Positions 12,767-51,902 of a stretch of DNA of 52,821 nucleotides are shown here, piece by piece. A program made the translations under genes and the position numbers. Origin of the DNA: Catajapyx aquilonaris (lineage: Eukaryota); contig KZ538704.1 of the NCBI GenBank assembly GCA_000934665.2, positions 1-52,821 of the forward strand, in the 5' to 3' direction. The notes beneath the pieces are model-generated. The model saw only the letters and a program-made list of their open reading frames with translations, searched no databases and was not told the DNA's origin. The stretch's first letter is position 1. Every line of letters begins with the position of its first letter.

Positions 12767-14510
12767 ATGTTGCCCTTGGCTTCGGAGATCAAGAAGGAGG
12801 AGGAGGAGGAGGAGGACGGGGAATTAGCTGCGGGGGATGATGAGGTGCAGCTGCCTGATGATGATGATGACCTTCCTGCTGTCAAGGTGGAGTCTGCTGA
12901 AGAAAGGTCTGCCGGATGGTGTCATTTTTAAGGTGTCGAGATCAAAGTGTCACTTTTCCCAAAGAAAGGAACACTGCCCGTTTTCAATGGAAGTGACTGC
13001 ATCTCTTAGGACAGGGTCGTACCTGTATCTGAAAGTGTTTTCACGCCTTTTCCCAGGGCTATGTCATTGGTGTTAAAGATCAAGCAGGAAGAGGAGGAGG
13101 AGGAGGACAAATTAGGAGAGATAAAAGAAGAGCCAGAGATAGACGTACCGGTAGATCAAATGGAGGACGGCGAGGAAATGGAAGAAGACGGCGAAGGAAT
13201 GGTGACGACAGAGGATTTGTGGAGTTTGGTCATGAAGGAGGAACCTCGTTTGGCGGAACCAACTGCCGTGGAAGTACCGGATGAGGTGGCATCGGATGGG
13301 GCACCAAATGTGGAAAGCGTGGCTTCCAGCAATGTAGGCACCCCACTGGGAGCCACATCCAGAAGGACTTCTGCTGGAGGACAGGTACGCTGTCATCGGA
13401 AATGTGCGCTTGATGTTCACCTCCGCTTTCTATTAGCATTACAGTTGGAGTGAGATGTCCGACATGCACCTTGCCTATGGCGAAGCACAGGGGCGTGGTA
13501 GAGAAGCCCAGAGGGTGTACCAGGAACTATTTCCAAAGAGGAAATTGCCAAATGGCTCCACCTTTGCAGCAATTGACCAGCGGCTGAGGGAATACGGTTG
13601 TCTCTACAAACAAGCACGTGAGACTGGACGACCCGCCACTGTGGCAACTGCAAGCATGAAGAAGAGAGTGTTGGACTGCTTCAGAGAGGGGTCTGCCTCT
13701 AGCCTTCGCAGCGTGGCCCGTGCCCTGGGCACCAGTACCAGCACTGTTAGGAAGATTGTGAATGAGCACAGGCAGCAGTTCCACATGTACGCAGAGAGGG
13801 TGCACATACTGGGTCCGGATGACTTCCCTTTGCGGGTGGAGTTTGCCGAGTGGTTTCTGAAGCAACATGCAGCGGATCCCCAGTTTCCGTCCCTTGTGCT
13901 CTTTACTGATGAAGCATCGTTTGATCTGGAGGACGCATGGAACTCCAGAAACAGCAGCGTCTGGGAGAAAGAGAACCGTCTCGCCGTACGACCCAAGAGC
14001 CAGCAAGATAGAGTTTCGGTAAACGTGTGGGTAGGAATTCTAGGAGACCTCTTGCTGGGTCCACTTCTGCTCCCGCAAGACCTAGATGCCAGGTCGTACA
14101 GGGTGTTTCTGGGCCACTCGTTGCCAGAGCTGCTGGAGTGTGTTCCGCTGGACATGCGCATGAAAATGTGGTTCCAGCATGACGGGGTGTCTGCTCATTT
14201 TGGGTCTGGTGTTGGTAAGTGCCTGAAGAGGACCTTTTGCGACAGGAGGATCAGCCAGGGCGGCCCTGTGTCCTGGCCACCACGGTCACCGGACCTCACT
14301 CCCGTCGACTTTTTTCTGTGGAGTTACATCAAGACTCTAGTGTACGAGACCCCAGTGGATTCGGAGCAGATTCTTCTCGCCCGAATCATGGCAGCATGTG
14401 AAGTGATACGGGCAACAGACTGCATATTTCAGCAAGTGCGCGAGTCCATGTTGCGTCGCTGCAAGGCCTGCGTCCAGGCCAACGGGCGCAACTTTGGCCA
14501 CTTCCTTTAA
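12767..14510 (+). CDS. G4: two acidic exons fused to a DD41D (rosa-type) Tc1/mariner transposase with DUF4817-type HTH; exons 12767-12906, 13057-13384, 13437-14510
   Basis: Phase-2 then phase-0 introns are in frame. Exon 3 starts HYSWSEMSDMHLAYGEAQG; motifs FTDEASF, FQHDG, WPPRSPDLTPVDFFLW with 41 residues between the 2nd and 3rd D. No TIRs seen. Confidence 0.85.
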
Positions 14511-23503: not shown

Positions 23504-25613
23504 ATGCCGAAGGTGACTCGGGGCAGGCGGAGGGGAAGGAGCAGCAGCCGCGTCGGGAAAGGGTGAGCGGGAGGAGTCACAGAGATGGAGATACAATCTG
23601 TGGGGATAAGGAGGACCTGGTGGGAAAATGAAAGTGATTATTGTTTGACTGGCTGGTGTTTATTCCAGGACAGTGTCACTCGCACTGGAAAACAATGGGG
23701 AGCTGGAGGAAGAAGATGGGGATGGCGGCGAAGGGGAGACGTGGCCACTGGAGGAGGAAGCCTCACCCCACTCGCAGGATGCTTTTACAGAGTTCACGCT
23801 GCTTCGCGGGGTCAAAGGGGAGGCCATGGAGGATGAGGGGGATTGCACAGCTACGGGGAAGGCTTCATGCTTCGATGGCCACTCGCCACTCGTAGAAGTC
23901 AAGGAAGAACCAGAAGCGATGATTGCAACCGCATCTGAAGTGCCCACAGACGCTGATGACCCATTGACACTGAATTCTGAAGCCACCGCAGAGGTACACC
24001 TTTGCTACCATTTTTTGTATTAAAAAATACACAAGGCAAGCACTGTAATGAGATCCTCATTTTCTATCTCAAAATAATAACTCTCTGAGTGATAAAATGC
24101 TGCAGTGCTGACAAGGGTCAGAGGGGCCTTCACATTTTCAAAAAAACTGTGGCCGGGACATACAGATTGCTTGTGACTGGTTTTTTCTCTGAAGATTATC
24201 ACAACATAATTTTTCGCTTATGCTTTTGCAACATGTACATACGCCAGGAGGGACGGTGACAACTAGGTGGATTGATTATACCTGATAACTAGCGCCTTCC
24301 TACCGGTATGCCCCAATGTGAATGTTGGGATATTGGAGTAGGAAATCTGTTACGTTTTATCATACTCCAAGGTGTTCACTTAGACAGAGTGTTCTTGGGT
24401 TATCTTTAGTGCACCGTGAAGGAAGTTGAGGGAGGATGGCCCTGTGGGGTGTTGGGCAGTTCAAGGCCACTTGACTGCAATGTGACAGCAATGGGGAGCT
24501 TGGCACCGGTTGGGAGAATGGCAGCGGACAGGATGAACACAAAGGCATTCTTTGCCATGTATTACGGAGGGATCAGGTCTATCGTGGGATGGTGCATGGA
24601 GGTGGGCCTTCTGCCCAAGAGCTGCACATGTGAGCGTTGCGGAGAGGAAGCCCATGTGTACTACCACCCTGGTATGTCACTTGGCCATTCCTGTTTCACT
24701 GTCTTTGTGATTAATGTGTTCCTCTTTTCAAACCTAATTCAGATGGAGACGTTAAGTGGGTGTGCAATCAACAGCGGCTGCGGTGGTCCAAGTCAGTTTT
24801 CAAGTGCAGCATATTTAAAGACTGCCACATTGGTGCTCCCAATGTGCTTATTTTTATGCTGCACTTCTCAAGAGGACACACGGCCTATGACTTCCTGTCT
24901 TCTGAGTTGGGTGAAGGAGAGGCTGAAGCTTCTTCTAAAACAATTTCTAGATACTTATTACAGTTCCGAGAGATTTGTTTCACATGGTTGGAAGAAATGT
25001 ACAAGGAAGAAGGGAGAATTGCAGGGCCTGGTCATGTAGTAGAAATTTTCGAGACCAAAATTGGTTAGTGGTTGCTTGGTTCACTCTTTCGGATTTTTAA
25101 ATTGTGCGTCACATGCTAACATATCTTGGTTCTTTAGGTAAGCGCAAGTATCACAAAGGCAAGATTGCTGATGGTTGTTGGCTAGTGGTGATTGTCGAGA
25201 GAGGGGAAGCCCATGGGCCGGCAGGAGGAAGGTTCCGTATTTTCATTTGCCCTAACAAGAGGAGAAATGGACAAACCCTAGTTGACATCATAAAAACCAA
25301 TGTTGCGTCTGGAACCACTGTCGTCACTGATCTGTGGGGAGGCTGCGATGGTGCCAACGCAGAGAGATTTGATCGTCTCACTGAAGACCACTCCATGAAC
25401 ATTGTGGATCCAGTGACATGGACAAACAAACGAGCTAGGGAGTCGGAATGGCGACCGGTAAAGACTATAGTGGCGAGAGGTGGCCATGCGAAGACCTCCC
25501 TCTTCCTTCTCTTGGCGGAGCATCTCTGGAGGAACGAGATGAAGAGGACAGGCACTGACCCATTCATGGGGCTGGTGTCCATTTGTTCAAAAGTGTATAA
25601 AATTGCCCATTAA
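23504..25613 (+). CDS. G8: acidic leader + Merlin/ISXO2 (IS1595-like) transposase derivative; exons 23504-23562, 23669-23993, 24410-24671, 24743-25063, 25138-25613
   Basis: One open frame across phases 2,0,1,1. Motifs CTCERCG, IAGPGHVVEIFETKIGKRKYHKG, GTTVVTDLW, DHSMNIVDPVT, RESEWR match the Merlin pattern VEIDE..KRKYHRG / SDxW / NHS.NFVDP.T / IESxW, with first D changed to F. Start codon uncertain. Confidence 0.8.
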
Positions 25614-26639: not shown

Positions 26640-28453
26640 ATGTCGTTTGTGCTGAAGATCAAGGAGGAGGAGGAACTGGAAGATGAGGACCACGACGACA
26701 CTGCGAGGAAGAGAGCCAAGGTGGAGGCCTCTTCAGGCTTCGATGGCGACGACTCACCTCCCGTTGACGATGATGACGGGCTTTGTGAGGTGAAGGAAGA
26801 ACCAGAAGAGATGATTGCAACCGCATCTGAAGTGCCCACAGACGCTGATGACCCATTGAATTCTGAGGCCACCCCAGAGGTACGCCTTTTGCCAACTTTT
26901 TTGCAACACCTACGCGAAGTGCGGAAAACTTACCAAGTGATCTGACGTCATCAGCAGGGTTTCCATGGAGACCCCCTCACAGAACAATACGAGTAAACAG
27001 TGTCAACAAAAAAGAAATCAGTGGAAGATACAATGACGTCAGATTTTCGTTAGGTTTTCCGCACTGTTGGCCAGGAGGGAAAAGGTGAAAACTAGATGCA
27101 TTGCTCATGCCAGTCAACCAATTGCGTTCCTACTGGTATATCCCAGTCTGAAGGTTGATCTGCACCCAAGAATTTATGCCCAACTGCACAAATAGAAAAT
27201 TTGTTATGTTGAATATAGAGGTGTGAACCTATAGACAGGGTGTTCTTGGATGATTTTCAGTGCTCAACGAAGGAGGTTGGGGAAGGCCAGCACTCTGTGG
27301 TGTTGGTCGATTTAAGGCCACTTCGCTGCGACGTGGGACAGGTGAGGAGAATGGCAGCGGACAGGATGAACACCAAGGAATTTTTTGCCATGTATTACGG
27401 AGGGATCAATTCTATTGTGGGATGGTGCATGGAGGTGGGCCTTGTCCCCAAGACTTGCAAATGCGACCGTTGCGGAGAGGCAGCCCATGTGTACTCTGAC
27501 CCTGGTTAGTCACTTGGTCATTCTTACATCGTTTTCATCATATGATTCATGTAATTCTATTTTAATCCTAATGTGTAGATGGAAGGGCTTATTGGAGGTG
27601 CAAGAAACAAGGGCTAGAGTGGTCCAAGACTGTATTCAAGGGCAGCATCTTTCAAAACTGCAATATTGGTGCTCCCAATGTGCTCATCTTTATGCTGCAC
27701 TTCTCAAGAGGACACACGGCCTATGACTTCCTTGCTTCTGAGCTGAGGGAAGGAGAGACTGGGGTTTCCGCTAATACCATTTGTCGATACTTACTACAGT
27801 TCAGAGAGTTATGTTTTGCTTGGTTGGAGGAAATTTACAAGGAGGAAGGGAAAATTGGAGGGTCCGGTCATGTAGTAGAAATTTTTGAGACCAAAATTGG
27901 TTAGTTGTTGCTTGGTTCACTCTTTCGGATGCTTTTATTTTTTACGTCGCATGCTAATGTAACTTTCTTTTTTTTAGGAAAGCTCAAGTATCACAAAGGC
28001 AAGATTGCTGATGGTCATTGTCTAGTGGTGATTGTCGAGAGAGGAGAAGCCCATGGACCGGCAGGAGGCAGGTTCCGTATTTTCATTTGCCCCAACAAGA
28101 GGAGAAATGGACAAACCCTAGTTGACATCATAAAGGCCAATGTTGCGTCTGGAACCACAGTCGTCACTGATCTGTGGGGAGGCTGTGATGGTGCCAACGA
28201 AGAGAGATTTGATCGTTTCACTGAAGGCCACTCCATGCACTTTGCGGATCCAGTGACATGGACAAACAAGCGAGCTAGGGAGTCGGAATGGCGACCGTTA
28301 AAGGCTATAGTGGCGAGAGGTGGCCATGCGAAGACCTCCCTCTTCCTTCTCTTGGCAGAGCACCTGTGGAGGAACGAGATGAAGAGGACAGGCACTGACC
28401 CATTCATGGGGCTGGTGTCAATTTGTTCAAAAGTGTATAAAATTGCCCATTAA
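26640..28453 (+). CDS. G9: acidic leader + Merlin/ISXO2 transposase derivative; exons 26640-26879, 27261-27504, 27579-27899, 27978-28453
   Basis: Same intron positions and phases as G8; VVEIFETKIG; open frame throughout. Confidence 0.85.
26918..27065. mobile_element. Short MITE in G9 intron
   Basis: AGTGCGGAAAAC..TCTGACGTCAT / ATGACGTCAGA..GTTTTCCGCACT inverted arms; absent from the homologous G10 intron. Confidence 0.6.
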
Positions 28454-28599: not shown

Positions 28600-28854
28600 C
28601 CTTTCTCCTCATTATAAATCGATTGAATTTGTTTTCGAAGTAATTCCTCTTCGATTTTCGCTCCGTTTCCTTCCTCTTCTTGCCCTGGTTTGTTCTCTGC
28701 CTCTGGCTGGAGTGACCGGAGGACAAAGAGTTGGAGCAAGGTGAGTGGGCCGTGGACGGAGAGGGAGGGAGGGGAGAGAGACCGACGGTGGCAGGCATAT
28801 GCCACTCTTATTGTGATTATATCATCTGCCCTGCTTATTGTGTGTTTCAGGAAC

Positions 28855-30948
28855 ATGTCGTTTGTGCTGAAGATCAAGGAGGAGGAGGAACTGGAAGAGG
28901 ACCACGACGACACTGCGAGGAAGAGAGCCAAGGTGGAGGCCTCTTCCCGCTTCGATGGCGACGACTCACCTCCCGTTGACAATGATGATGACGGGCTTTG
29001 TGAGGTGAAGGAAGAACCAGAAGAGATGATTGCAACAGCATCTGAAGTGCCCACTGACGCTGATGACCCATTGACACTGAATTCTGAAGCCGCCGCAGAG
29101 GTACGCCTTTTGCCAAACTTTTTTAAAAAAGATGCAGGCAAGCACCAGCTAATGAAATTCTTTATTTTATTTTTATTTTGTACTTGAATAACCTTAGAGT
29201 AGTAAAGTGTTGCTAATGCTGGTGAGGGTCAAGGTTAGAGGCCCATTGTAATATGTGACCTGGACATTCACATTGCTTGTCCTTGGTGTACCACGGGGAG
29301 TTTTTAAGCTATGAAGATTACCAAATCAAAAACAAAAAACCTTGTAGTTTTGCAATGCCTACATTGGCCAGGAGTAGGGAAGGTGAAAACTAGGTCCCAT
29401 GCCAGTCAACTGTCTCTCTCTCTCTCTGCCACTATATTTGACCATGACAGTTTTTAAAATTGCAATTAGGGGGGGTGGGGCCATACTTGTGAGCCTTATT
29501 TCCAGGCGAGTTATATTGAAGGCCAAAGTTGGTTAATGTGGCAGTACATACGGCCAGGGGTGGCTGGGGGGCAGTGGCTGTGTTTCAAAAACGGAGCAGG
29601 CAGCCTAGGAAAGCGGGCAGGAATAAAATTATTAACACGAATGTATTATACATTTAAAATTTAAACAAATAATTGTGATAATTGTGATTTCAAATTTATA
29701 ATCCACAGAGTTGCGGGAGAGCAGGCAGGCAGGCAAGCAACAAGATGGCAGGAAGAGAGGACACGGGAACTTCAGCCGACACAATCCCCACGGTACTGCC
29801 GCTGCCATCGGCCCCAACCACTACCAACCCACAGCACCCTGCTGTGGCCCGACCCGGCCTGGAGTTGAATAACAAGGAATTTTTTAACGTATACTATGCT
29901 GGGACTAAGGCAATGGTGGAGTGGTGCATGCAGTTGGGCCTTGTCACCAAGAGTTGCACATGTCCTCGCTGTGGACAGGCCGCCTACATGTATTATGGAC
30001 CTGGTTAGTCCATTGGTGTTTTGTAGCATTTACTTCATGGTTCATGCATTCCTTCATTTTCTCCCTAATGCAGATGGACTTGTTCAGTGGAGGTGCCACA
30101 AGCAAGGTTTCAAGTGGTCCCAGTCGGTGTTCAAAGACAGTGTGTTTGCAAACAGCAATGTTGGAATTTCCAATGTGATGCTTCTTATGCTGCACTTCTC
30201 AAGAGGCCACACGGCCTACAGCTTCCTGGCTTCGGAGCTGCGTGATGGACAGGTTCCAAGTGCTCACGACACCATTTCGCGTTACTTACAGCACTTCAGG
30301 GAGCTCTGTTTCATGTGGTTGGAAGAGATGTACCAGGAGGAAGGCAAAATTGGAGGATCTGGTCATGTAGTGGAAATTGTCGAGTCCAAAATTGGTTAGT
30401 TGTTGCTTGGTTCACTCTTTCAGATGCTTTTATTTTTTACGTCACATGCTAATGTAACTTTCTTTTTTTTAGGAAAGCTCAAGTATCACAAAGGCAAGAT
30501 TGCTGATGGTCACTGGCTAGTGGTGATTGTCGAGAGAGGAGAAGCCCATGGACCGGCAGGAGGCAGGTTCCGTATTTTCATTTGCCCCAACAAGAGGAGA
30601 AATGGAGAAACCCTCGTTGACATCATAAAAACCAATGTTGCGTCTGGAACCACAGTCGTCACTGATCTGTGGGGAGGCTGTGATGGTGCCAACGCAGAGA
30701 GATTTGATCGTCTCACTGTGAATCAATCCATGAACATTGCGGATCCAGTGACATGGACAAACAAGCGAGCGAGGGAGTCGAAATGGCTACCATTAACTGC
30801 CATAGTGGCAAAAGGTGGCCATACAAGGACCTCCCGCTTCCTTCTCTTGGCGGAGCATCTCTGGAGGAACGAGATGAAGAGGACAGGCACTGACCCATTC
30901 ATGGGGCTGGTGTCCATCTGTTCGAAACAATTTAAAACTGCCCATTAA
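28855..30948 (+). CDS. G10: acidic leader + Merlin/ISXO2 transposase derivative; exons 28855-29100, 29709-30003, 30074-30394, 30473-30948
   Basis: Open frame, phases 0,1,1; CTCPRCG; VVEIVESKIG (first catalytic D changed to V). Confidence 0.85.
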
Positions 30949-36052: not shown

Positions 36053-36774
36053 TCGAGTATGGTACCATAAGGCCAAACCTTGGCGCAGGGCACCTTCTTC
36101 GTGATTTTTCCGATTAACGGTGCGTTTCGCCACAAAAATATAAAATTCCCTCAAAAATGCACCTACCGTATTTTTACTAATGCGCCGCCTTAACCTGAAC
36201 TGGAGAACTGGAGAACTCACGGCCCATCACCACGATGGGCCTTGAGTTCTCCAGCGACCCCATAGCTGCCTGCTGGCACAGTCATCCAGGCCAGATTGGC
36301 CATTATTTTTGGGGTTGGGGAATGACTAAGAGAGGTGCCGGTCTTTCAATCCTATTCTACATTTACTGCACAACCTTCAATTTTTCATTACATACTTTTG
36401 CTGGATTTTTAAAGCGTATTGTGGACTCTCTTACAATCTGACATCCGCAGTTTGGTGTTTTTACTTCATGCACAGTCATGCAATATGCTCCATGCAACAG
36501 GTATGCCAACATTGTATAGCCATAATTATTGCAAAGGTTACTACCAAATCAATGACTTACACCTACAAGGAAAAGTCTTTCATAACCCGAGCAACACCGG
36601 GTATCCTGCTAGTATCTGTATATAATGAAACTGTCGATATTTAATGCCATGAAGTAGCTAGAGTTTGGGTGCGGTTGTTTTACCTTAAAACGAGGCTCCA
36701 GAAGGGGGATCAGACATTACTGTACCGGTACTGTACGGTACAGTACACCGGGTACAAAATCGCGGGCTTGGCTA

Positions 36775-36875
36775 TAGCGATGGATGGCGATAGCGGTTAT
36801 CGGGAAGCGTAGCGCTTAAGACCTTCCAGTTCATTGTCCGGCGATCCGAATGCGCCCCCGAATCCAAGATGGCCG
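36775..36875 (+). promoter_or_regulatory. Cluster promoter, G12
   Basis: TAGCGG 36791; TAGCGCTTAAG 36810; GGCGATCCGAATGCGCCC 36840-36857; CAAGATGGCCG 36865-36875. Confidence 0.75.
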
Positions 36876-37090
36876 ACCCTTCACTGAAATGCGACGAAAA
36901 TGTTGCTGATGGAGACATTTCTCGTCTATTTTGACCGGTTTTAGGTCGGGACTGGTTGCTCTGGCTGCGGTTAACTGAGGATGAGGAGTTGAAGCAGGGT
37001 GAGTGGACGGAAAAGAAGGGGAAGGAAGAAGTTGATAGGGTGGTGTGATGGCCCTTAGTGTTAGTTGACCTGCTTGTGTTTTCCAGGAAC

Positions 37091-38354
37091 ATGTCGTTTG
37101 TGCTGAAGATCAAGGAGGAGGAACTGGAAGAGGAAGATGGGGATGGAGAGGCTGGGAGGCTGCCACCGAATAAGGAGGAAACTGCATCGCACGCACAAGA
37201 CGACTCCGCATTTGCACAAGTCATGATTCATGAGGTCAAAGGTGAAATGGAAGAGGAGATGGAAGACGACAGCGTCGCCACAGAGAAGATGGTGAAGGTG
37301 GAGACCGCTTCATGCTACGATGACGACTCCGCACATGCTGTTGATGCTGTCCGTTGTGAGGCCAAGGGAGAACAAGGCTCGGACATGGTTTCAACTGTAT
37401 CTGAAATGACCGCAGATGCTGATGATGATGATCCATTAATAGCGAATTCTGGAGCGACCGCTGACGAGGTATATGTCACTAATGACTCTTTTTTTTGCAA
37501 GTGACAAGCTGCGCCGCCTAATTTTCCCCCTAAAATAATAACTCCTGAGTGATAAAGTGTTGCCTTTCTTTTATGAATGGCTGTGTTTTTGTGTGTAAAG
37601 GCCCATACACACTGGCCGTCGACGGTTTTGGTTTTTGGTCGCGTTGACGCCGCGGACCAATCATGACTCATGTAAACAAGGGCAACCCATTGTTTAGAGC
37701 TTGTTTATATGGGTCATGATTGGTCCGCGGCGACAACGCAACCAAAAACCAGAACCGTCAACGGCCTGTGTGTATGGGCCAGCCTGATTTCTGAGTAGGT
37801 TTAATCATAAGGCACTCAAAGTGATGTAATGCTTTTTGCAGGGATTACATGGTGCTGCTGCTGGGAGGAATGTGACAGGAGTACAAGAGAACGATAGTGG
37901 CATGACCCAGGAAAATGAGGAGCCGTACACTTGTCACATTTGTCGCTATAAGTTCAGGCAGACATTTCACTTGAGGAGGCACATGTTGACGCACACTGGC
38001 GAGAAGCTCTTTTCCTGCCGCATTTGCGAGAAGAAGTTCAGGCAAGCCTCGCATGTGAACCACCACATGTTGACTCACACGGGAGAGAAGCCGTTCGTGT
38101 GCCCCATATGCGATAAGAGGTTTTCAGATTCGTCAAACATGCGGAGGCACGTGGTGCGTCACGCGGGAAAGAAGCCCTTCTCCTGCCAAGTATGCCACAA
38201 GGAGTTTGCTGAATCAATTTATTTGAAAAACCACATGACGATCCACACGGAAGAAAAGGCATTTTGTTGTCACATTTGTCAAAAGCAGTTTGCTCGGCTG
38301 GATTACGTGAAAAAACACCTGAAAGCGATTCACAAAGACATCGAAGGTAATTGA
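37091..38354 (+). CDS. G12: acidic leader + 5 C2H2 fingers; exons 37091-37468, 37842-38354
   Basis: MSFVLKIKEEE..DDDPLIANSGATADE|gtatat, phase 0, in frame with finger exon. Confidence 0.85.
37600..37780. mobile_element. Palindromic MITE, PIF/Harbinger-like ends
   Basis: GGCCCATACACA / TGTGTATGGGCC termini, about 80-bp inverted arms. Confidence 0.75.
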
Positions 38355-38486
38355 ATTATTTGGCTGTTAATACCAGTAATTAATAGGGTGAATTAACATA
38401 TGTTTGGGACCCTAATAAATGCTACATATAATTAATTATTCAATGCGTTCCTTGCTGGTCTAGTTATCGCAGGAGCAGTGGGGGAG

Positions 38487-38579
38487 TAGCGGCTATTTCC
38501 GTGATAGCGCATAAGCCTCTCCGGTGTTGATGCGGGCTGGCGGCCATCCGAATGCGCCCCCACCAATTCAAGATGGCCG
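38487..38579 (+). promoter_or_regulatory. Cluster promoter, G13
   Basis: TAGCGG 38487; GATAGCGCATAAG 38503; GGCCATCCGAATGCGCCCC 38542-38560; CAAGATGGCCG 38569-38579. Confidence 0.75.
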
Positions 38580-38823
38580 ACAATTTCTGAGCCAAAAAAA
38601 AAAGACTGGGCTGAGTTTCTTCGCTCTTTTTCGGCTGGATCTGACTTCGCTCACGTTTGGGCTGCAGGGAACGGATGCTGCGGACTTCACGGAGGGTGAG
38701 TGCGCAGGGGGAAGGAGGCTGAAGGGACTCCGATTGTGGTTATGGCGGATATGGCAGTGGGTGACCGACAGAGGCTAGGCCTACCTGGTAAATATTTGAC
38801 CTCATGTTTTTACATGCAGGACC

Positions 38824-40661
38824 ATGTCGCTTGTGCTGAAAATCAAGGAGGAGCTGGAGGAAGACGATGGGGATTATACCGCAGAAGAGACGGGAAGGCT
38901 GGCGTCGTCACGTGTACAGGACGACACTGCGTTTGTAGAAGTCATGCTTCATGACGTCAAGGAGGAAATGGCAGAGGAAGCAGAAGTGACTTACTCTGAT
39001 GAGGAGGACTTGGCACTCACTGAAGACACGCTTTGTGAGGTCAAAGTCGAGGAAGAGGAGGTGGTGGAAACGACGTCTGAAGTGGCTCCAGATGCGGATG
39101 ACCCATTGACCAATGAGGTACGTTACTATAAGCAGCTATAAGGAACTACAAAAAGATTGATTTGATGAAAACATTTTTAAAAATCCCTAATGCCCCGTAA
39201 TAACTTCAGAATGCTAATGTACACCCATTCTGATCAGTACTGTGCATGTGATTGCTTGGCCGTTACATTTTTTCCGCAAGGGGGTGTCAAATAAAATGCT
39301 TCTGGGAAATCTCTGATCTGCAGTCTAAGACTGGGCGCAAACAGGAAATTCGGGGGAGCGTTGTTGCCCGAGCAACTGGCCGGAACGAAAATGGCACGTG
39401 CACCCAGAAGAGTCGCACGCAAGTTTCCAGGTTTCTTGCACATAAGAAACCTGGACAAAATCTCGGGGCACATTACAATGCACCAAGAAGAGATTGGACC
39501 ATTCAGGCGGAAAGAAAATTAGTGGAATTCTACCGATGTAAGTCGAATATTTGGACTGAAATGGATAGGGCGTCTTTGCACAGGCTCTTGCGTAATCAGA
39601 CGTTGTCATTTCAGCCCATGAGTTGTTGTGGAACCCAATGGAGGAAGACTACCATAAACGACATGTGCGGGAGTATTTATTGAGGGAGCTGGCGGGACTC
39701 CTCCGGGAAGGTGCTGGGGCAGTCAGAGTTGGAGGTAATGCACTGACGGTTGCATGAGGGTGAATGAGGGTAATTATGCAAGCGCTTGGACCATGTAATT
39801 CAGTAATATGCAATTAAATGGATTTTTGGTTTTTTTTAAAAGTGGCTGATATCAAATCGAAGTTCAGGAACTTGCGAACCACGTTTCTAAGAGAGAGAAA
39901 GAAAGAGGCTGCATCACCATCTGGAAGTGCGTACAAGTCAAGGTGGCACCATTTTGGATCCCTCACTTTTCTCAACGATGTTATCAAGCTTGATTCGAAC
40001 ACGGATTCCATGGGAAGCCCACAGATTTGTAGTGTCAAGGTAAGCCACTCATTTCGGCATTTCTGTTAACTGAACAATGGCTGCAAGGCAAAACAATAAT
40101 TGGACACAGTGTATTGACCAGACTCCAAGAAATATTTACCCTGATTGATTACTTTATCTGCATACAATAATCAATCATCAACCATACTGACTGTGAGAGG
40201 CAACCAATTAATTTTATGTACTGTCACTTGCTTTTTCACAGATCATTGACGAGGATTCAAGGGTACCTCCACCCACTCTAGATCCAGCCAACACCAGCCC
40301 ATCTCCTGCTTCATCATGCGCTGCTGCTTCACCATCATCATCATCCGCTGTGCCTTCCCCTCTCCCAACCTTCCCAAACCCATCCCCCAACCCGTCTCCC
40401 AAGCTCCAAAAGAAGAATGCAAAACTCAAGATCGCTGCTGCGAACATTGAGGAGAAGAAAGTGGAGCTCCTGGCCAATGCAGCTGATGCGATGACAGCAG
40501 TGTTGGAAAGGCTGCAAGGCAACAGAGACCATGTAGAGCTGCACTGCCGCGCTCTGGCAGAACGAATTAAGAAACTGAGTCCAATAAATCAAGAGCTGGC
40601 ATTGTTAGACATGCACCAGGTAGTAATTAAATATGTAAAGCAGGAGGCTGGACATAATTGA
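38824..40661 (+). CDS. G13 isoform A: acidic leader + MADF domain + BESS-like tail; exons 38824-39117, 39324-39537, 39615-39734, 39843-40039, 40242-40661
   Basis: Open frame across phases 0,1,1,0: WTIQAERKLVEFYRSHELLWNPMEEDYH..DIKSKFRNLRTTFLRERKK..YKSRWHHFGSLTFL (MADF pattern); tail HCRALAERIKKLSPINQELALLDMHQVVIKY; AATAAA near 40819. Confidence 0.8.
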
Positions 40662-40730
40662 TTACTGCCTATCTATAACAATGCTTGCCACATTATAACA
40701 AGGGACTGTTTCATGTTCGTTCAACAGTTA

Positions 40731-41290
40731 TTACCTTTTTATAATGCTACACATGATTTTAACAGAAATCAAGTTCCGTGCTGCCCTGGATTTTATTACC
40801 TCCTTTGTACCATACATGAATAAAGTGCGCATGATAGTGAGTGCCTTGTGTGACTGTAAGAGAATCGGAGTCAGGGAAACACGGAAACAATTAGCACGGA
40901 TTCCAGACACCGTGCTCTCCAGACACAGCTGAGCTTGTGAGAGCCTAAACAAATAATGATGCTATATGGTCAGCCAGCGCCTCGATGATTGCAATGCATA
41001 TTTATCTTTGACAATGTATGACCTTTCTCCAGGGTGGGATGTCTATGAAAACATGATATTTGGAAGTCGGCTCCAAGTTACCTCTTCTGCAAGTTTCCTG
41101 TTTGCGCCTGGCCCAATCCATGTGATACGGACCATGGCAAAGTTTGTGCCTGCTTGAAACAATAAGTCACTTTGGTCATCTCTCTCATTGATCTATCAGG
41201 GATGTTGACAAGGTTGCAAACAAGGCAGGAATCATACACAGTGTGTATTATGGAAATGTTAAAATATTGCTGCAATATTGTGTTCATTGT
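40731..41290 (-). pseudogene. Decayed PIF/Harbinger transposase convergent with the MADF module
   Basis: Minus strand FRLSQAQLCLESTVSGIRANCFRVSLTPILL matches the Harbinger motif YRLSRARRxxENAFGILANRFRVFxTPIxL; upstream limit approximate. Confidence 0.65.
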
Positions 41291-41428
41291 GTGGTTGTTA
41301 TCGAGTGTTTATCAAATACGTTTTTCTATTTATTTTGGAGAATAAGGATGCTTTTGTGAAGGAACTTCAGGGGTAATACAATAATTAAGTACTGAGCGGT
41401 ATTCTAAGCGACTTGATGCATTTTGCAG

Positions 41429-42670
41429 GGAGCACATGGCGGAGCTGTTGGCAGTGATGCGATGGGAATCCAGGAGAGCCAGAAGACACGCATTAGGGAG
41501 AAGTCATTTGCTTGTCAAGTTTGTCACAAGAAGTTTAGTCAACTATATCGTTTAAATCAGCACTTGAAGACCCATACAGGAGAGAGTCCCGCTTGTCCGG
41601 TTTGTAAGAAGAGCTTTAGGCAGTCATCTCAGCTGAAGAAGCATATGATGACTCACTCAGGAGAGAAACCCTTTTCTTGTCAAGTTTGTCAGAAAAGGTT
41701 TAGTCGGCCACATCATTTGAAGAAGCATATGAAGACTCACACAGGGGAAAAGCCCTTTTCTTGCCAAGTATGTGAGAAGAAGTTTGCAGAAGCATCGAAT
41801 ATGAAGAGACATATGATCAGTCACTCCGGGGAGAAGACATTTGGTTGCCAAGTGTGCCAGAAGAAGTTTGCAGATTCATTGTATTTGAAAAATCACATGA
41901 TGATCCACACAGAAGACAGGCCATTTCCATGTCAAATTTGTCAGAAGAAGTGCAGGCAATCATGTGATTTGAAGAAACATATGATGACTCACACAGGAGA
42001 GAAGCCGTTTTCATGTGATGTGTGTCAGAAAAGGTTTAGGAAGTCGTCACATTTGAAAATTCACATGAAAAGTCACACAGGGGAGAAGACATTTGCGTGC
42101 CAAGTGTGCCAGAAGACCTTTGCGGAATCGACTTACTTGAAGAAACACATGATGACTCATACAGAAGAAAAGCCATTTTCCTGCCAAAAATGTCAGAGGA
42201 AGTTTAGTCAGCCGTACCATTTGAAGAAACACATGAAGTCTCACACGGAAAATAAGCCATTTTCATGCCTAGTGTGTGAGAGGAAGTTCCGCGAATCATC
42301 AAACATGAAGCAACACATGAAAACTCACACAGGGGAGAAGGCATATGCTTGCCAAATGTGCGAGAAGAAGTTTGCAGAGTCATCTTATCTGAAGAAACAC
42401 ATGATAACTCACACGGGTGAGAAATCGTTTACCTGCGAAGTGTGTCAGTTGAAATGCAGGCAGTCGTCCGACTTGAAAAAGCACATGAAGACTCATACGG
42501 GCGAGAAGCCATTTCCATGCCAGGTGTGCCAGAAGACGTTTGCAGAATCATCCAGTTTGAAAAAGCACATGATGATTCATACAGGAGAAAAGCCGTGGGC
42601 TTGTCCAGTTTGTCAAAAGAACTTTAGGCATTCAACCCACTTGAAGAAGCATATGATGACCCACAAATGA
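41429..42670 (+). CDS. G13 isoform B terminal exon: 14 C2H2 fingers
   Basis: Phase-0 acceptor ttttgcag at 41428; start GAHGGAVGSDAMGIQE is homologous to G12 exon start GLHGAAAGRNVTGVQE; nearest upstream leader is 38824-39117. Confidence 0.85.
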   Translation, partial: GAHGGAVGSDAMGIQESQKTRIREKSFACQVCHKKFSQLYRLNQHLKTHTGESPACPVCKKSFRQSSQLKKHMMTHSGEKPFSCQVCQKRFSRPHHLKKHMKTHTGEKPFSCQVCEKKFAEASNMKRHMISHSGEKTFGCQVCQKKFADSLYLKNHMMIHTEDRPFPCQICQKKCRQSCDLKKHMMTHTGEKPFSCDVCQKRFRKSSHLKIHMKSHTGEKTFACQVCQKTFAESTYLKKHMMTHTEEKPFSCQKCQRKFSQPYHLKKHMKSHTENKPFSCLVCERKFRESSNMKQHMKTHTGEKAYACQMCEKKFAESSYLKKHMITHTGEKSFTCEVCQLKCRQSSDLKKHMKTHTGEKPFPCQVCQKTFAESSSLKKHMMIHTGEKPWACPVCQKNFRHSTHLKKHMMTHK

Positions 42671-42742
42671 GAGGAATTTGGGGAAACATAATTATAAGCC
42701 TTGTGTTGTAGATCATTTGGCGTCATGTTTTTCCAGGATAAT

Positions 42743-44155
42743 ATGTCACTCAAAGAGGAGGAAGGTGAAGAACACATCAGCCAAGAGGAGCTGTCGAATG
42801 AGGAAACTCCATTCTTGCAAAGATAGCCCTGCACTTGACATGCTGCTAGAGGTCAAAGGGCGGGAATAAAGGACAGGGCCAGAGATATGTGATGTCATGG
42901 CTGCAGATGAGGACCTAGGGAAAGCAGTGAGAAGACCCTGTGTGACACTTATTATGATGGCTTCATTGACGATGACCTTTCTGATGAGACCAAGGAAGAA
43001 GAAGCGGAGATGGTGGCTAATGTGTCAGAAGTGGTCACAGATGACCCATTAGCGGCTAGAGAGGTACGAAACCACTGTGTGCATGGCTGGGTTTGGTATG
43101 ATCCTGGTATTTATATCTGTAGCATTGAGAGCAGATTTACAATAGAGTCATGGTTAACTTGTCAGTAATTTGGTCTTAGCAGAGAGACAGTTTGTGATCA
43201 ATTTTGGTGGATGCAGATATCAGGCCTGATTTTGTGAAACACTTGGATGTGCACTTATCATCATTTTGTTAACCAAATGTATTTTTCAGGAAGCACAGCA
43301 GGTGAGCCAAGGGAAGAGCCGCAGAAGAAGAAAGACACGCGAGGGAGCAAAACCAAATGAGTGCAACATATACCAGACAGTGTCATCTGACATTAATCAT
43401 CACGTGATGATGAAGTGCATGGGAGAGAAGCCATTTGCGAGGCAAGTTTGTCGGGAAAAATTGACAAAATCGTCAGAGTTGAAAACAGAAATGGTGAATC
43501 GCAGAGGAGAGAATAAGCCACATGTGCGCATGATGTGCCGAAAGGAGTTCTCTCGGGCGTATGACTTGAACGTACACGCAAGGTTTCACACAGGAGAGAA
43601 ACAATTTGCGTGCATATTGTGCCGGGAAAAGTTTTACACGAAATCTCACATGAACAGACACACATGATTGTTCATTCAAGAGAATCTCCATATGCATGCA
43701 AATATTGCAACAAAAAGTTTCCTCGGGAACAGGAAATGAAAAATCACACAATGATTCACACTGGTGAAAAGCCATTTGCTTTGCAAAATATGCCACAAAC
43801 AGTTTATTTTGGCATCTGGGCTGATATACCATACTAGGATTCACACTGGAGGGAAGCAGTACGCATGTGACACGTGCCAGAAACAGTTCAGCAGATCATA
43901 CACCAACTGCAATCACACAAGAGGATTCACATCGGAGAGAATAATAATAAGCCGCACACATGTAAGCTGTGCCAAAAAGTGTTTCGTTACAAGTGTGGCT
44001 TGAACAGAGACACCTCGTAAGCCATTCAGGTGTGAATAAGCCATACGCATGCAAAGCGTGCCACAAAAAAATTCACCCGACCAACTGACGCGAAAAGGCA
44101 CGTGCTGATACGCCATGCAGAATGGAAATCATCGGAGTGCACAAGTGGTGAGAAG
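42743..44155 (+). pseudogene. G14: leader + zinc-finger pseudogene
   Basis: Leader MSLKEEE..DDPLAARE|gtacga (to 43063) has frameshifts and stops; finger exon from 43290 has lost Cys/His and has stops; no promoter. Confidence 0.8.
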
Positions 44156-44339
44156 CAAGAGGATTATTGTTGCATTTAAATGAACTTTTTCATTGTACAT
44201 ATTTCAACGTACTACTATAAATTGTGCGCCAGAAAACGTTTCGTTCACTTTCGTAGCTATCGCGTCTAATGCGCGATCGCTTCTTTACTAGTCACCGCTA
44301 CATTGTCACCGTGATTTTAGTTCATATCTTCAAGGCGCG

Positions 44340-44506
44340 GTCCGTTCCTCTTTCCTCCAGTCTGTTCCGCTTTCTTATGCTTCGTTCCGCTTTCTTCTGC
44401 TCCGTTCCCCTGTCTTCCCCTCTCTTCTGCTCCGTTCCTCTCTCTTCTGCTCCGTTCCCCTCTTTTCTGGTCCATTCCTCTGTCTTCTGGTCCGTTCCGT
44501 CTTTCC
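44340..44506. repeat. ~20-bp pyrimidine-rich tandem repeat (CTCCGTTCCTCTCTCTTCTG-like, about 8 units) just 5' of DCPS
   Basis: Visible periodic TCCGTTCC..TCTTCTG units. Confidence 0.8.
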
Positions 44507-44518
44507 AATGAAAGAAAG

Positions 44519-45920
44519 ATGGCGTCGGTTGAATCCACGGTTGGATCTTCATCACCTTCATCTTCTTCGTCTCCTGCCCCGAAGAGACCTCGTCTCTCAT
44601 CCGATCCGGCGGGAGATGAACGGGTCACGACGCTTCCGTCCGTCAGGTCCATCCTGGCCAGCCTGGAGCCCCGTCGGATCCTTCGGCAGGACCCGGAAAG
44701 GAAGCTGCTCTGGCTGGAAGGGGCAGTGGGAGGCCAGAAGGCCATCCTCCTCCTGGAGAAGTCTCCCTTCGGACTGGAGCAGCAAGGGAAGGAGCAGCTC
44801 AAGGTTCTGGACGAACTGGTTCGAAACAGTCTGCTGGAAGGTTGGAAGGAAGACCAAGAGACGCAGCCGGATCAGACCAGCAGCACCGACCAGGATGAAT
44901 CATTCCGCAGCGTCCTCCTCCCAGTCAAGGGACATCCTTTCAATGGTAATAACACAGGCATACCAGCAAGGAAGACGTTTCTCTTTAAATAAACTTAATT
45001 AACCTTCCGCTGACCTGACTTTTCCTCTGCAGTTGTCAAGTCGACGTTGATCTACCCTGCGACTGACGCACACATCGCCAAGTACAGCGAGTCCAAGTCG
45101 TTCCTAATCAACGAGACGCCCAAGCTGTACGCAGATGTCACTCTTCCTGTCGTTAACAAGCAGGCCCCGAAGATCCAGGTGAATCAACATAATTGGAATT
45201 AAATTTTGAGCGCGGATTGCAGCCTTTTGCTGTGTTCCAAATAATTTTGATGAAGCAACTTTTATTGTAGCCTCGATGGTTTTCTAACTTCACACTTGCG
45301 ATTTCAGTGGGTGAGGAACATTCTGAACCACAAGAGTGAATCGGAAAGAATAGTGTTTGAAGACCCTGACCCCGCAGTTGGCTTCATACTTCTTCCGGAT
45401 CTAAAGTGGGATGGGATCCTGAAGGACACCCTGTACCTGGTTGCCATCGTTCACCGGGAGGGGATCAGATCGCTGCGGGATCTTACGCCAGAGCACTTGC
45501 CGCTACTTGAGAACGTGAAAGACAAAGGGACGGTGAGTGGTCGTTTGTTGGTACTGCAGCAGAGTCGAGTGCCTATTATTATCTGTGAAAGTCTGACCCG
45601 ACTTCTCTATTCACCAGAAAGCAATCTGCGACAAGTACGGCCTTCGATCGAGCCAGCTTCGGATCTGCCTGCACTACCAGCCAACCTATTACCATCTCCA
45701 CCTGCACTTTACATACCTGAACTTTGATGCGCCTGGAATTGACGCCACAAAATCTCACCTGCTCTCAACCGTCATGAGGAACATCAATCTGGTTCCAGAC
45801 TATTACCAGCGATCAACCATTCCGTTTGTCGTGTACGAAGGTACAGCACTTTACCACAAATACGTGGAAGCAGGCCATCTCTTTAAAGATGACACGAGTG
45901 ACAGAACTGATCAGGACTAG
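44519..45920 (+). CDS. DCPS: m7GpppX diphosphatase (scavenger decapping enzyme); exons 44519-44945, 45033-45178, 45308-45532, 45618-45920
   Basis: [49 protein letters not shown], and histidine triad [13 protein letters not shown]. Confidence 0.95.
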
Positions 45921-47190: not shown

Positions 47191-48209
47191 ATGGCTGAAG
47201 TTCACGTAATCGGAGAGATAGTCGGAGGCAAGTCCTTTCCAGGCCGAAACATCTTCTGCAAGTTTTACTGTGGCGCAGGTATGACCCAACACTTATTGGC
47301 ACTTCTGCAGTAAACAAATAACCAATCATGCACCAACATTGATTTCATTTGACATATAATATGGGATAGGCTTTGTGTCCATGACTGAATCACTCTCGCT
47401 CTCCTATTACAGCTTGTACTTGTGCTCCTGATACTTGTTAAACTTATACAAAAAAAATGTTATTTTATTAGGAGACGCATGGTCGGTTCTGGAAGGTGAG
47501 GTTGAAGGACAAACACAAGTAGACTGCCCCCTTCATGACAACTTATCCTGCTGGAGCCACCCTATTGACATACATTATGGCACCAAAGGTATCAAAGGTG
47601 TGTGTACCACTGTTCCTCACATTCCCATTGACAGTCGCACTGCACAGGGTGGCCTTAAAGTCTGGGCACATGTTGCATTGTTGGTTGCCAGTTACTGTCA
47701 ACTAGCAATACAATACAATACAAAATTACGTATGCCTACGTGTCCAGACTTTGGGCATTTTTAGGGCCATCCTGTACAAGGGGCATTCATTTAGCAATGT
47801 TGCAGAGTGATTCATAAACATTACAATAACATTACAGAAACAAACTCTTTCTTCAATGTTACGTAATGATCTTCAAAGCCGGATTTTGCTCGTAGGTTGG
47901 CCGAAGATACACGTGGAGGTGTACCATCTAGACGCGTTTGGGCGCAGTGAGATCTACGCATACGGCTGTTGCTACATCCCATGCACACCTGGACCCCATC
48001 AAATCGAGGTGCAGACCTGGCGACCAATCAGCTCCACCCGGGACAGGATCACGCAGTTCTTTCTCGGAGGAGGACCTGAACTGAGATCCCCCGAGTTGGT
48101 CTACACTGGAGTGGACCGGTACCGGCTACAAACGCAGTCCATGGGAACAGTGCATCTCGAGATGAACATCCTGTTCAAAAACTTCAGAGACTTTGGAGTC
48201 GAGTACTAA
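47191..48209 (+). CDS. B9D2: B9 domain-containing protein 2 (ciliary transition zone); exons 47191-47278, 47472-47597, 47896-48209
   Basis: MAEVHVIGEI.., [43 protein letters not shown], C-terminal FGVEY. Confidence 0.93.
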
Positions 48210-49914: not shown

Positions 49915-51629
49915 TCATGTATGAATTCTCATGTGCGTTTTCAAATTATATGAATCACGGAACTTTTTCTGGCACACCTCACAAAGATATGGTTTCTCGC
50001 CGGTGTGAATTCGCATGTGAGTTTTCAAATTATATGAATAACCAAATGTTTTCTGGCACACCTCGCAAATAAACGGTTTGATTCCTGTGTGAATTCGCAT
50101 GTGGGTTTTCAAACTATATGCATAACTAAATGTTTTCTGGCACACCTCACAAGTAAACGGGTTTTCTCCCGTATGAATGCGCATGTGACATCGGACATCT
50201 CTTGAAGCACGAAATTTTTCCTGACATACCTCACAAGTGAATGGTCTTTCTCCTGTATGAATGCGCATGTGCTTTTTCAATTCACTTCGCTCTATAAATT
50301 CTTTCTGACACACCTCACAAGTAAATGCTTTTGCATGAATTCGATTGTGAGCCTTCAACTCAGTTGAATCAGAAAACTTTATCTGGCAAATATGGCAACA
50401 AAACCTTTTACTGTGAATCATCATGTGAAATTTCAAATCAAGCTGGGTACTGAAGAATTTCTGGCATATTCGGCACTCAAACGGATTTCTTCCATCGTAT
50501 ATTCCACTGCTCCTATCCTCTTGGATCCCAGCGTCTCCTACTCCGCTTTCAGTTTTAACTTGCACAACCTGGAACGTGAATTACAGTACATCAATTCTGA
50601 TACTGTGATGCTTTCCACCTTCTTTTGCCTCACAGAGCTCACAGATCCACAGATTGTACCATCAAAGATTTCAATGCCACCCTCTACATGTTGGAGAAAT
50701 AGAAATTATGACCTCTGCTGGATTGAGGTCACAAAGGATAAATTTAAGCACATTTTAACATACGACGATCCATAATCATCCTTGGCATTATTTATTGTCG
50801 CCTGAATGTATCCAAATCTATACTGTAACCTCCATGAGAAAAGTGGATGCAAGTTAATCAGGTTGCCTTACAGAGAAGTAGTACACGGCGATGCATTCAC
50901 CGCATGCAGCCTGCTTCACGGAGGATGGCTGAGCGGGCGGAAACTCCGAGTGGTGGGATTGGCTCAAGTTCATTGCGTTGGACTTTGCGGGTGGCTGAGC
51001 GGGTGGTTGGAGCACCTGCTCAGCCATCCGACTAACTTGTGAAGCAGGCTTGTTTTTATGACGTCTGGCAGTTGCACATAGACTGATATGAAACAACCAC
51101 ATATCCATTACAGTATACAGAAAGGGATGAACTTTATCAATAAAATATGCTTCATGAATATTTAAGTACAGCATATGTAGATTACAATGACTCGCGCTAA
51201 CCCATGACTACCTAAAAGTTTTTAGGTGTTGGACAATGCTGGGCAGGTAAGAGTTGCGATGTCGTCAAAAGACACGCATGTAGGGTTGCTTGATTTGGAT
51301 TGATGATTTTGTGTGGCTTTCAATGTAAAATTATGCTGCAATTTCAGCAGTGTGCTTACACCACTGCATCCAGAACCTCCCGCTAAAGGGTCATCTTTGT
51401 CCTCCTTGGATGTGTCCACCGCCACCATCTCCTCCTCCTCCTCCTCTCCTTCCTCCTTCTTGACCTCGAGGAGAGTGTCTTCCATGCGCGCAGTAGAATC
51501 ATTGTCCAGCCATGGTGGTGGTGCTTCCTCCTCCTCCTTCACCCTTAGCCTCCAACTCTCCTCGTCCACTGTGATGTCCTCCTCCTCCTCCGGCTCTTCC
51601 TCCTTCTTTATCTTCAGGATGAAAGACAT
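49915..51629 (-). CDS. G15: acidic leader + 7 C2H2 fingers; exons 51629-51360, 50568-49915
   Basis: MSFILKIKKEEE..KDDPLAGGSGCSG|gtaagc, phase 0; finger array ends at H-T-stop-E-K-P-F with decayed fingers beyond. Confidence 0.85.
50908..51050. mobile_element. Short MITE in G15 intron
   Basis: AGCCTGCTTCAC..GGATGGCTGAGC / GCTCAGCCATCC..GTGAAGCAGGCT inverted ends. Confidence 0.6.
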
Positions 51630-51765
51630 GGTGCGAGGAACAGTCCCGACGATAATTCCAGGAGGCGACCAAACCCATTCGAGGGAACGAGACGGGTTGA
51701 AACGAGTTCTGCTGGACGGACACTCTTCTTCCAGATCGAAACAGAATAAATTATTGTGTTGCTCA

Positions 51766-51902
51766 GGCGGCCATCTTTTTCTTTTCTTTTTTTCTTTTTA
51801 TTTATGCAAATGAGAGGGTGCGTTCCTGTCGCCACACCACCAGAGTGCTTGGAAGGACGGACTTATGCGCTATTATTCACCTGCTCTGAATAATCGCCGC
51901 TA
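51766..51902 (-). promoter_or_regulatory. Cluster promoter, G15 (minus strand)
   Basis: Reverse strand: TAGCGG 51902-51897, TAGCGCATAAG near 51872, GGCGACAGGAACGCACCC 51833-51816, AAGATGGCCGCC 51777-51766, same order as other copies. Confidence 0.75.

Follow-up and report, generated by a model that had tools for sequence, protein, structure and literature searches.

A zinc-finger gene of Catajapyx aquilonaris with a MADF/BESS-like gene body in its leader intron, and the possibility of two DNA-binding partners for one leader

Can a single short leader exon serve two unrelated DNA-binding bodies? This question is raised by a gene, here called G13, in a stretch of 52,821 nucleotides (nt) of the Catajapyx aquilonaris genome (assembly GCA_000934665.2, contig KZ538704.1, positions 1 to 52,821 of the forward strand; hereafter the window). 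The window is filled by a tandem gene cluster on the plus strand, in which an acidic leader exon, beginning MS(F/L)VLKIKEE..., is followed a few hundred bases on by a single-exon array of C2H2 zinc fingers. The G13 leader has two possible partners, both in frame and in phase 0 as read from the sequence: a four-exon cassette that encodes a MADF domain and starts at 39324, and a 14-finger exon that starts at 41429. A first-pass annotation of positions 38824 to 42670 had recognized this pair of partners and had explained it by a whole Harbinger element exapted in the leader intron. The anatomy is borne out by our analysis, in that a MADF-type gene lies inside the leader intron, its phase matches that of the leader and both partners are intact; the whole element is not, as set out below. 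We give an even chance to the explanation that a MADF/BESS-like gene body was captured in the G13 leader intron and that leader–MADF and leader–finger products arise from one promoter. Unless stated otherwise, the features described lie on the plus strand.

The leader coding exon of G13 (38820..39117) follows an acceptor AG at 38818-19. Its coding part (38824-39117, 294 nt) runs from the ATG at 38824 through 98 codons of acidic character to a phase-0 donor, GAG/GTACGT (the slash marks the exon border). A short non-coding first exon is likely to precede it, because the acceptor lies 4 nt before the leader ATG, as it does in the neighbouring gene G12 and in the unit at 26640. Pfam assigns the leader to no family, and a word-index search against longer proteins found no match for it.

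Within the leader intron lie the four cassette exons, with GT-AG borders read from the sequence at all cassette introns; joined to the leader they form 1245 nt, or 414 codons with a single, terminal stop. Exon 2 (39324..39537; acceptor AG at 39322-23, donor AT/GTAAGT) is entered in phase 0 and left in phase 1, and reads through 57 basic linker codons without a Met into the start of the MADF domain (Trp codon at 39495-97); its N-terminal part of the domain aligns to relatives. Exon 3 (39615..39734; phase 1 in and out) matches positions 8-37 of the Pfam MADF profile (PF10545; E 0.016, 16 bits), and exon 4 (39843..40039; phase 1 in, phase 0 out) matches positions 44-84 (E 3.6e-7, 30.9 bits against a cut-off of 22), passing the gathering score. 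The two matches are colinear, which fits one MADF domain split by introns. Exon 5 (40242..40661) encodes a Pro/Ser-rich linker and a BESS-like C-terminal motif, and ends in a TGA stop at 40659-61. It is followed, 158 bases after the stop, by an AATAAA (40819..40824) and then a GT-rich stretch; as the only AATAAA or ATTAAA between 40640 and 41428, this is likely to be the poly(A) signal of a MADF product, were the site used.

The cassette seems to be translatable only through the start exon of the G13 leader. There is no in-frame ATG across 39252-39536, which takes in exon 2 and the open frame upstream of it, and the first in-frame Met of the cassette falls within the MADF domain, in exon 3. 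The nearest ATG, at 39478, precedes the first Trp codon by 17 nt, with its frame off by one, and the scorpion relative P0053 starts four residues before the matching Trp. It is plausible but unproven that the cassette's own start lost its frame and that what used to lie upstream of it has since come to be read in frame with the leader.

What had been annotated as an intact four-exon MADF-BESS module keeps its four exons, its open frame and its MADF domain under scrutiny; the BESS label has to be softened. The Pfam BESS model (PF02944) returns nothing on the cassette tail, whole or in shorter cuts, even at E ≤ 10. The tail nevertheless aligns through its helical motif to the C termini of P0053 and of a second relative, P0016, and all three proteins stop a few residues after it; the shared C terminus and stop indicate that the cassette keeps its native end. 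At the homologous spot, sub-threshold BESS matches are found in three of six relatives scanned (P0053, E 0.017, 15.4 bits against a cut-off of 21; P0016, E 0.14; P0054, E 0.11). In Atlas, the BESS set accounts for 24 of the 30 feature hits of exon 5, the best of which scores 0.92 and shares 185 of 256 features. Judged on these comparisons, the tail is best described as BESS-like, not as BESS.

Relatives of the cassette were sought outside and inside the window. A full HMMER search of 1.84 billion representatives with exon 4 as query returned 36 proteins at E ≤ 0.001, of which 27 were scanned for domains; MADF is present in 26 of the 27, and BESS, DDE_Tnp_4 and C2H2 are found in none of them at E ≤ 0.001. 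Teleosts are closest by E-value, the top six matches all being 'uncharacterized' proteins of acanthomorph fish with two or three MADF domains each. With the spliced cassette as query, only three of the fetched proteins align over the full length from the domain to the C terminus: two near-identical scorpion proteins of about 250 amino acids (aa; 31-32% identity) and P0016, of 312 aa (30%). A tree of 35 MADF domains, built without eight cluster mates that are near-identical and without matches to fewer than 85 domain residues, unites 12 domains of the fish multi-MADF proteins in a clade (support 100/99) without G13; G13 pairs weakly with a scorpion protein (82/45) in an unresolved group. Several short frames among the relatives open with the translation of a pyrimidine tract right before a V(D/E)DIK.KFKNLRT motif. 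The sequences suggest that fish MADF genes share the position of the cassette exon 3/4 intron, which would be neutral as to origin. The word-index search found no match for exon 5 among longer proteins, and with the profile of alignment A2 it returned four proteins, two of them rows of that alignment. A tblastn search with the cassette found no second copy in the window.

The second partner is the largest and best preserved finger array in the window. The 14-finger C2H2 exon (41429..42670) follows an acceptor AG at 41427-28 that comes after TTTTGCAG; it is entered in phase 0 and stays open to 42670, a frame of 417 codons. Pfam finds 14 zf-C2H2 stretches in it, all 14 fingers have the canonical spacing (C-x2-C-x12-H-x3-H) and 11 linkers are canonical (TGEKP type). 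Its start had been annotated as homologous to the finger exon of G12, and this is so: 41403-41871 is 64% identical to 37816-38293 of G12, a match that includes 26 intron bases. The leaders of the two genes are likewise related (38793-38978 in G13 against 37062-37257 in G12, 68% identity). Because the array is intact despite its divergence from G12, it is probably in use; the only leader upstream of it is that of G13. By contrast, the next member, G14 (42698-43667), has interrupted leader-like frames, no canonical C2H2 unit and no promoter-type box before it, and resembles a degenerate member of the family.

The flanks of the cassette within the G13 intron show no similarity to the G12 intron or to the rest of the window, so the insertion can be bounded only to 39118-41402. 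The G12 intron itself has 373 bases, half of which are a high-copy palindromic repeat. This repeat (37598-37780, with ends GGCCCATACACAC.../...GTGTGTATGGGCC) reaches a contig depth of about 18,500 in the DNA runs as against about 34 in its flanks, which corresponds to hundreds of copies. It gives a sub-threshold Rfam match to MIR2619 on both strands and resembles a miniature inverted-repeat element, with no clean target duplication seen; a scan of 36500-43500 with Rfam yielded nothing beyond this match.

A 13-nt box, CAAGATGGCCGAC, suggests where transcription of these genes may begin. It occurs at 14 sites with at most two mismatches (window positions 1081-51778) as against 1.28 expected, and none of 100 shuffles reaches 14. 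Twelve of the 14 sites lie about 50-250 bases upstream of a leader frame, the exceptions being 12287 and 15011; examples are 36865-36877 and 38569-38581, and the minus-strand gene at 51225-51797 is also preceded by a box. The copy at 38569..38581 is exact and stands 255 bases before the G13 ATG, and no box of this type, at up to two mismatches, is found anywhere in 38582-42670. The distribution of the box is consistent with a promoter element. Its sequence may resemble YY1-type sites.

Evidence for expression of the cassette comes from three aligned sequencing runs: X1 and X4, which are DNA runs at 20-35x, and X5, which carries the same species label and whose kind is not recorded. X5 lies on exonic stretches and leaves the introns and spacers between 38328 and 39755 uncovered. 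A 248-nt contig of X5 joins 39939-40037 to 40240-40388 with zero mismatch, and this joint is that of exon 4 to exon 5, its AG fitting on either side. Among the joints listed, it is absent from the DNA runs X1 and X4. We regard X5 as derived from RNA because it covers exons and not introns or spacers, and because neither DNA run has the joint among those listed. On this evidence the cassette undergoes transcription, with splicing as predicted between exon 4 and exon 5. Joints inside the finger arrays were also considered as splices and rejected; they occur in the DNA runs too or have ends that are not those of introns, and we read them as chimeras of paralogues.

The DNA runs also inform on copy number. 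X1 depth is about 34-36 over 38328-41591, as for sequence that is single-copy at a likeness of at least 90%. DNA depth rises to 55-76 over 39348-39755 (exon 2 to exon 3) only; one or two further loci in the genome with a likeness of at least 90% to that part of the cassette may account for this.

G13 is not the only gene of the cluster in which a leader precedes a foreign body. Three tandem units (23649-25613, 26640-28453 and 28627-30948) each consist of an acidic leader of the type found in these zinc-finger (ZNF) genes followed by a match to ISXO2/IS1595-like (Merlin-type) transposases, at sub-threshold scores (24.5-26.8 bits against a cut-off of 27). The middle unit can be modelled as a leader (26640-26879) and three further exons (27261-27504, 27579-27899 and 27978-28453), with GT-AG at all three introns and 426 codons that are in frame throughout and end in one terminal stop. 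Over the transposase part, the other two units share 83-85% identity with it. In the place where a catalytic Asp would be expected in IS1595 transposases stands the motif VVEIFETKIG. In the frame listing, no finger exon follows any of the three units. These leader–Merlin units suggest that capture of foreign DNA-binding bodies by a leader is not a one-off in this cluster.

Elsewhere in the cluster, an intact frame of 357 codons at 13437-14510 (plus strand) has a DUF4817 helix-turn-helix at its start (E 7e-6) and resembles transposases of the mariner/Tc1 type. It begins within the last bases of the leader frame 13010-13453.

The explanation to which we give an even chance would run as follows. 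G13 would be a member of the tandem family of 'acidic leader exon plus one zinc-finger exon' genes whose leader intron acquired four exons that encode a protein with one MADF domain and a BESS-like tail. Having no start codon of its own, the cassette would be read by phase-0 splicing of the leader onto exon 2, and the product would be a 414-residue leader–linker–MADF–BESS-like protein with the native stop and a probable transcript end near the AATAAA. Skipping of the cassette would yield the ancestral leader–14-finger product from the same leader. A single promoter would in this way supply one or the other of two unrelated DNA-binding bodies with the same putative effector head, and the either/or use of the leader would require both leader junctions.

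Several points weigh against this explanation. The RNA support consists of one contig, at a depth of 2.7, and no run recorded as RNA contains the stretch. Neither the 39117>39324 nor the 39117>41429 junction was seen; X5 is without cover on the leader, on exons 2-3 and on 41429-41591. The acceptor of exon 2 has a poor pyrimidine tract. The 57-codon linker is without relatives, and its openness may be luck (about 0.07 by chance, on our estimate). The BESS match stays below the Pfam threshold. An in-frame Met 12 codons into the finger exon (..SDAMGIQ..) means that this exon could be expressed alone. Finally, the order of events, with insertion after the duplication that gave G12 and G13, is unproven.

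Three rival explanations accept the cassette as modelled and differ in how it and the finger exon are connected to the leader. The leader might be spliced only to the cassette, the finger exon being either a recently orphaned relic or separately expressed from its own Met and an unseen promoter. Such a replacement would agree with the trend described for host–transposase fusions, in which, according to the accessible text of the study, the fusion transcript often turns into the sole transcript over time (10.1101/2020.05.07.082677), and with the absence of any finger exon from the three leader–Merlin units, the AATAAA after the cassette and the Met near the start of the finger exon. We nevertheless consider it unlikely, given that the finger exon keeps 14 of 14 fingers and 417 codons at only 64% identity to its closest paralogue in the window, that not one finger is left in the neighbouring orphan G14 and that no cluster-type box stands before the finger exon. 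That the cassette is an independent nested gene with its own promoter in 39118-39323, and the phase match a coincidence, is distinctly improbable: it would have no in-frame ATG before the MADF domain, its first in-frame Met, in exon 3, would leave a truncated domain, the leader frame stays open through the 57 codons that precede the domain, and there is no promoter box, even though the only RNA evidence covers exons 4-5 and is silent on the 5' end and two phase-0 sites would agree by chance in about 1 in 3 cases. The last of the three turns on a weak phase-0 donor-like site, CAG/GTAGTA (40620..40625, read from the letters), inside the BESS-like motif. If used, this donor would link the cassette in frame to the finger exon, whose acceptor is also in phase 0, and the leader and exons 2-5, joined through 40619/40620, would encode one long leader–MADF–14-finger protein. 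The site is off consensus at two positions, +4 and +5, splicing there would cost the protein the final 13 residues of a tail motif that is conserved in relatives up to their own stops, and the stop and the AATAAA follow directly after it; we think this very unlikely.

The remaining rival is the one proposed by the first-pass annotation, a complete two-gene Harbinger element in the intron, with the MADF gene kept and the transposase decayed on the minus strand at 40700-41300. As far as the accessible text of the sources goes, a PIF/Harbinger element encodes a transposase of 400-500 aa together with a Myb/SANT/MADF protein (PMC9710019), descent of MADF genes from PIF/Harbinger is a widely held view (PMC10027918; PMC11893794), and a teleost MADF gene, croaker ADF-1L, has been proposed to be Harbinger-derived (PMC11893794). 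The G13 MADF domain also stands outside the fish multi-MADF clade, and its nearest full-length relatives (scorpion, P0016) are patchy. The letters of the minus-strand motif on which the annotation relied, FRLSQAQLCLESTVSGIRANCFRV, are indeed present, in a 76-aa open frame (40731..40961, minus strand; FRLSQAQL...), but the frame resembles no family: Atlas gives it a recognition of 1077, typical of random sequence, and a best value of 0.80 to unnamed bacterial clusters. Neither the four largest minus frames nor two plus frames of 40699-41308 have a Pfam match at E ≤ 1. None of 42 six-frame pieces of at least 20 aa from 40600-41440, 39100-39330 and 40030-40250 matches any Pfam family at E ≤ 10. 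DDE_Tnp_4 gives no signal around the cassette or in any of the 150 frames scanned, out of 163 in the window with at least 85 aa; of the 13 omitted, 12 lie on finger or finger-like exons and one, a mariner-like open reading frame, was scanned separately. The gap between the MADF stop and the finger exon measures only 768 bases and that between the leader and exon 2 only 206, so a transposase gene of 400-500 aa would not fit in. The cassette is not bounded by terminal inverted repeats with a 3-bp target duplication, and the depth is that of a single copy at a likeness of at least 90%. A whole Harbinger element with a decayed transposase in place is accordingly a proposal we hold to be highly improbable.

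A MADF gene, such as Harbinger elements carry beside their transposase, is present in exons 3-4, but this feature is common to ordinary host genes and does not by itself prove membership of such an element. A PIF/Harbinger origin of the MADF gene alone is possible. The patchy full-length relatives, in a set drawn from only 36 matches, are compatible with a transposon origin; the cassette could stem either from a PIF/Harbinger accessory gene or from a host MADF gene moved in another way, and if an element was involved, only its MADF gene remains.

A perfect 15-nt inverted repeat, the only strong inverted pair found, encloses the MADF cassette starting within exon 2. Its left arm (39334..39348, plus strand) lies 11 nt into exon 2 and its right arm (41094..41108, minus strand) 321 nt before the finger exon. 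None of 200 shuffles reaches its score, it occurs in two places only in the window, and it does not extend at the DNA level. We considered the arms as the ends of an element and rejected this: there is no extension, the flanks CTG and TGG form no duplication and the left arm sits in a coding exon. When the start of exon 2 was paired as an RNA duplex, with wobble pairs, against 877 tiles of the window, the best partner was 41094-108 (-43.7 kcal/mol; runner-up -40.7). Such pairing might, though we think it a long shot, bias the choice of leader partner. A wider conjecture, which we hold to be improbable, is that the leader is a portable effector exon found on three unrelated bodies (C2H2 arrays, a MADF/BESS-like protein and a Merlin transposase relic that was later triplicated), that the two G13 bodies compete under one promoter, and that the choice is perhaps set by RNA pairing between 39334-48 and 41094-108, by which the first bases of exon 2 would be hidden and the cassette looped out.

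How would G13, read as a leader with a captured MADF/BESS-like body, compare with known systems? The closest parallel is KRABINER. According to the accessible text of the study that describes it, host–transposase fusions can arise when a ZNF gene receives an insertion in the intron that precedes its finger exon and the insert is alternatively spliced to the upstream effector exons, and in KRABINER, in tetrapods, a mariner element in the last intron of ZNF112 is spliced to the KRAB exons (10.1101/2020.05.07.082677). The favoured reading of G13 agrees with the three steps given there for such fusions. G13 resembles KRABINER in having a DNA-binding gene, in frame, in the intron between effector and finger exons, with an acceptor just before the captured body and the parental finger exon kept; the G13 cluster also holds three in-frame leader–transposase units. 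The two differ in that the G13 body is a four-exon MADF/BESS-like gene, for which a transposon origin is only possible, and not a transposase open reading frame, and in that the effector exon is an acidic leader without a Pfam family and not KRAB. The leader junctions of G13 are moreover predicted from the sequence, whereas that study, in its accessible text, required RNA (10.1101/2020.05.07.082677).

Domesticated PIF/Harbinger MADF genes, as described in the accessible text on insects (PMC9710019) and on croaker (PMC11893794), are, like the G13 cassette, single-MADF genes of a few hundred residues that are single-copy and expressed, and the cassette shares with them a possible PIF/Harbinger ancestry. 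The genes in these accounts stand alone, often beside a domesticated transposase; the G13 cassette is grafted on a ZNF leader, and no transposase or element sequence was found beside it. The cluster as a whole resembles those of FiNZ-ZNF genes of cyprinids and of KRAB-ZNF genes, in which a short Glu-rich N-terminal exon and one finger-array exon recur in large tandem clusters (PMC10547256, accessible text). FiNZ, with its 28-residue N-terminal consensus, is described there as unique to cyprinids (PMC10547256), and the G13 leader is likened to it by the two-exon architecture only.

The predicted leader–cassette product also recalls a class of host regulators. Drosophila MADF-BESS regulators have an N-terminal MADF domain, a low-complexity linker and a short C-terminal helical BESS motif. 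The G13 cassette has the same layout, with a C-terminal helical motif of BESS type, but its tail falls below the Pfam BESS threshold and an extra leader and linker precede the domain.

The cluster is flanked by ordinary single-copy genes on its 3' side. These are a DcpS gene (44321-45917), whose N- and C-terminal domains are in separate exons and of which an exon matches human DcpS at what we take to be a vertebrate level, and a B9-domain ciliary gene (47432-48206). Together with the teleost MADF matches, the DcpS match would make a ray-finned fish the probable source of the sequence.

The principle of capture fusion is already known; the combination proposed for G13 is new to the literature searched. 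There, no ZNF-type leader common to a finger array and a MADF gene is described, nor are such fusions in fish, although supplements might list some. One consequence for annotation is that a MADF gene in an intron is not by itself evidence of a Harbinger element. If both leader junctions are used, G13 would catch gene birth by exon capture at an intermediate stage, with the old fingers and the new MADF gene both intact, and would show this process outside tetrapods and outside the KRAB system. G13 and the three leader–Merlin units nearby suggest that the leader, like KRAB, repeatedly recruits new DNA-binding modules, and its three bodies open a direct route to the question of what the leader is for.

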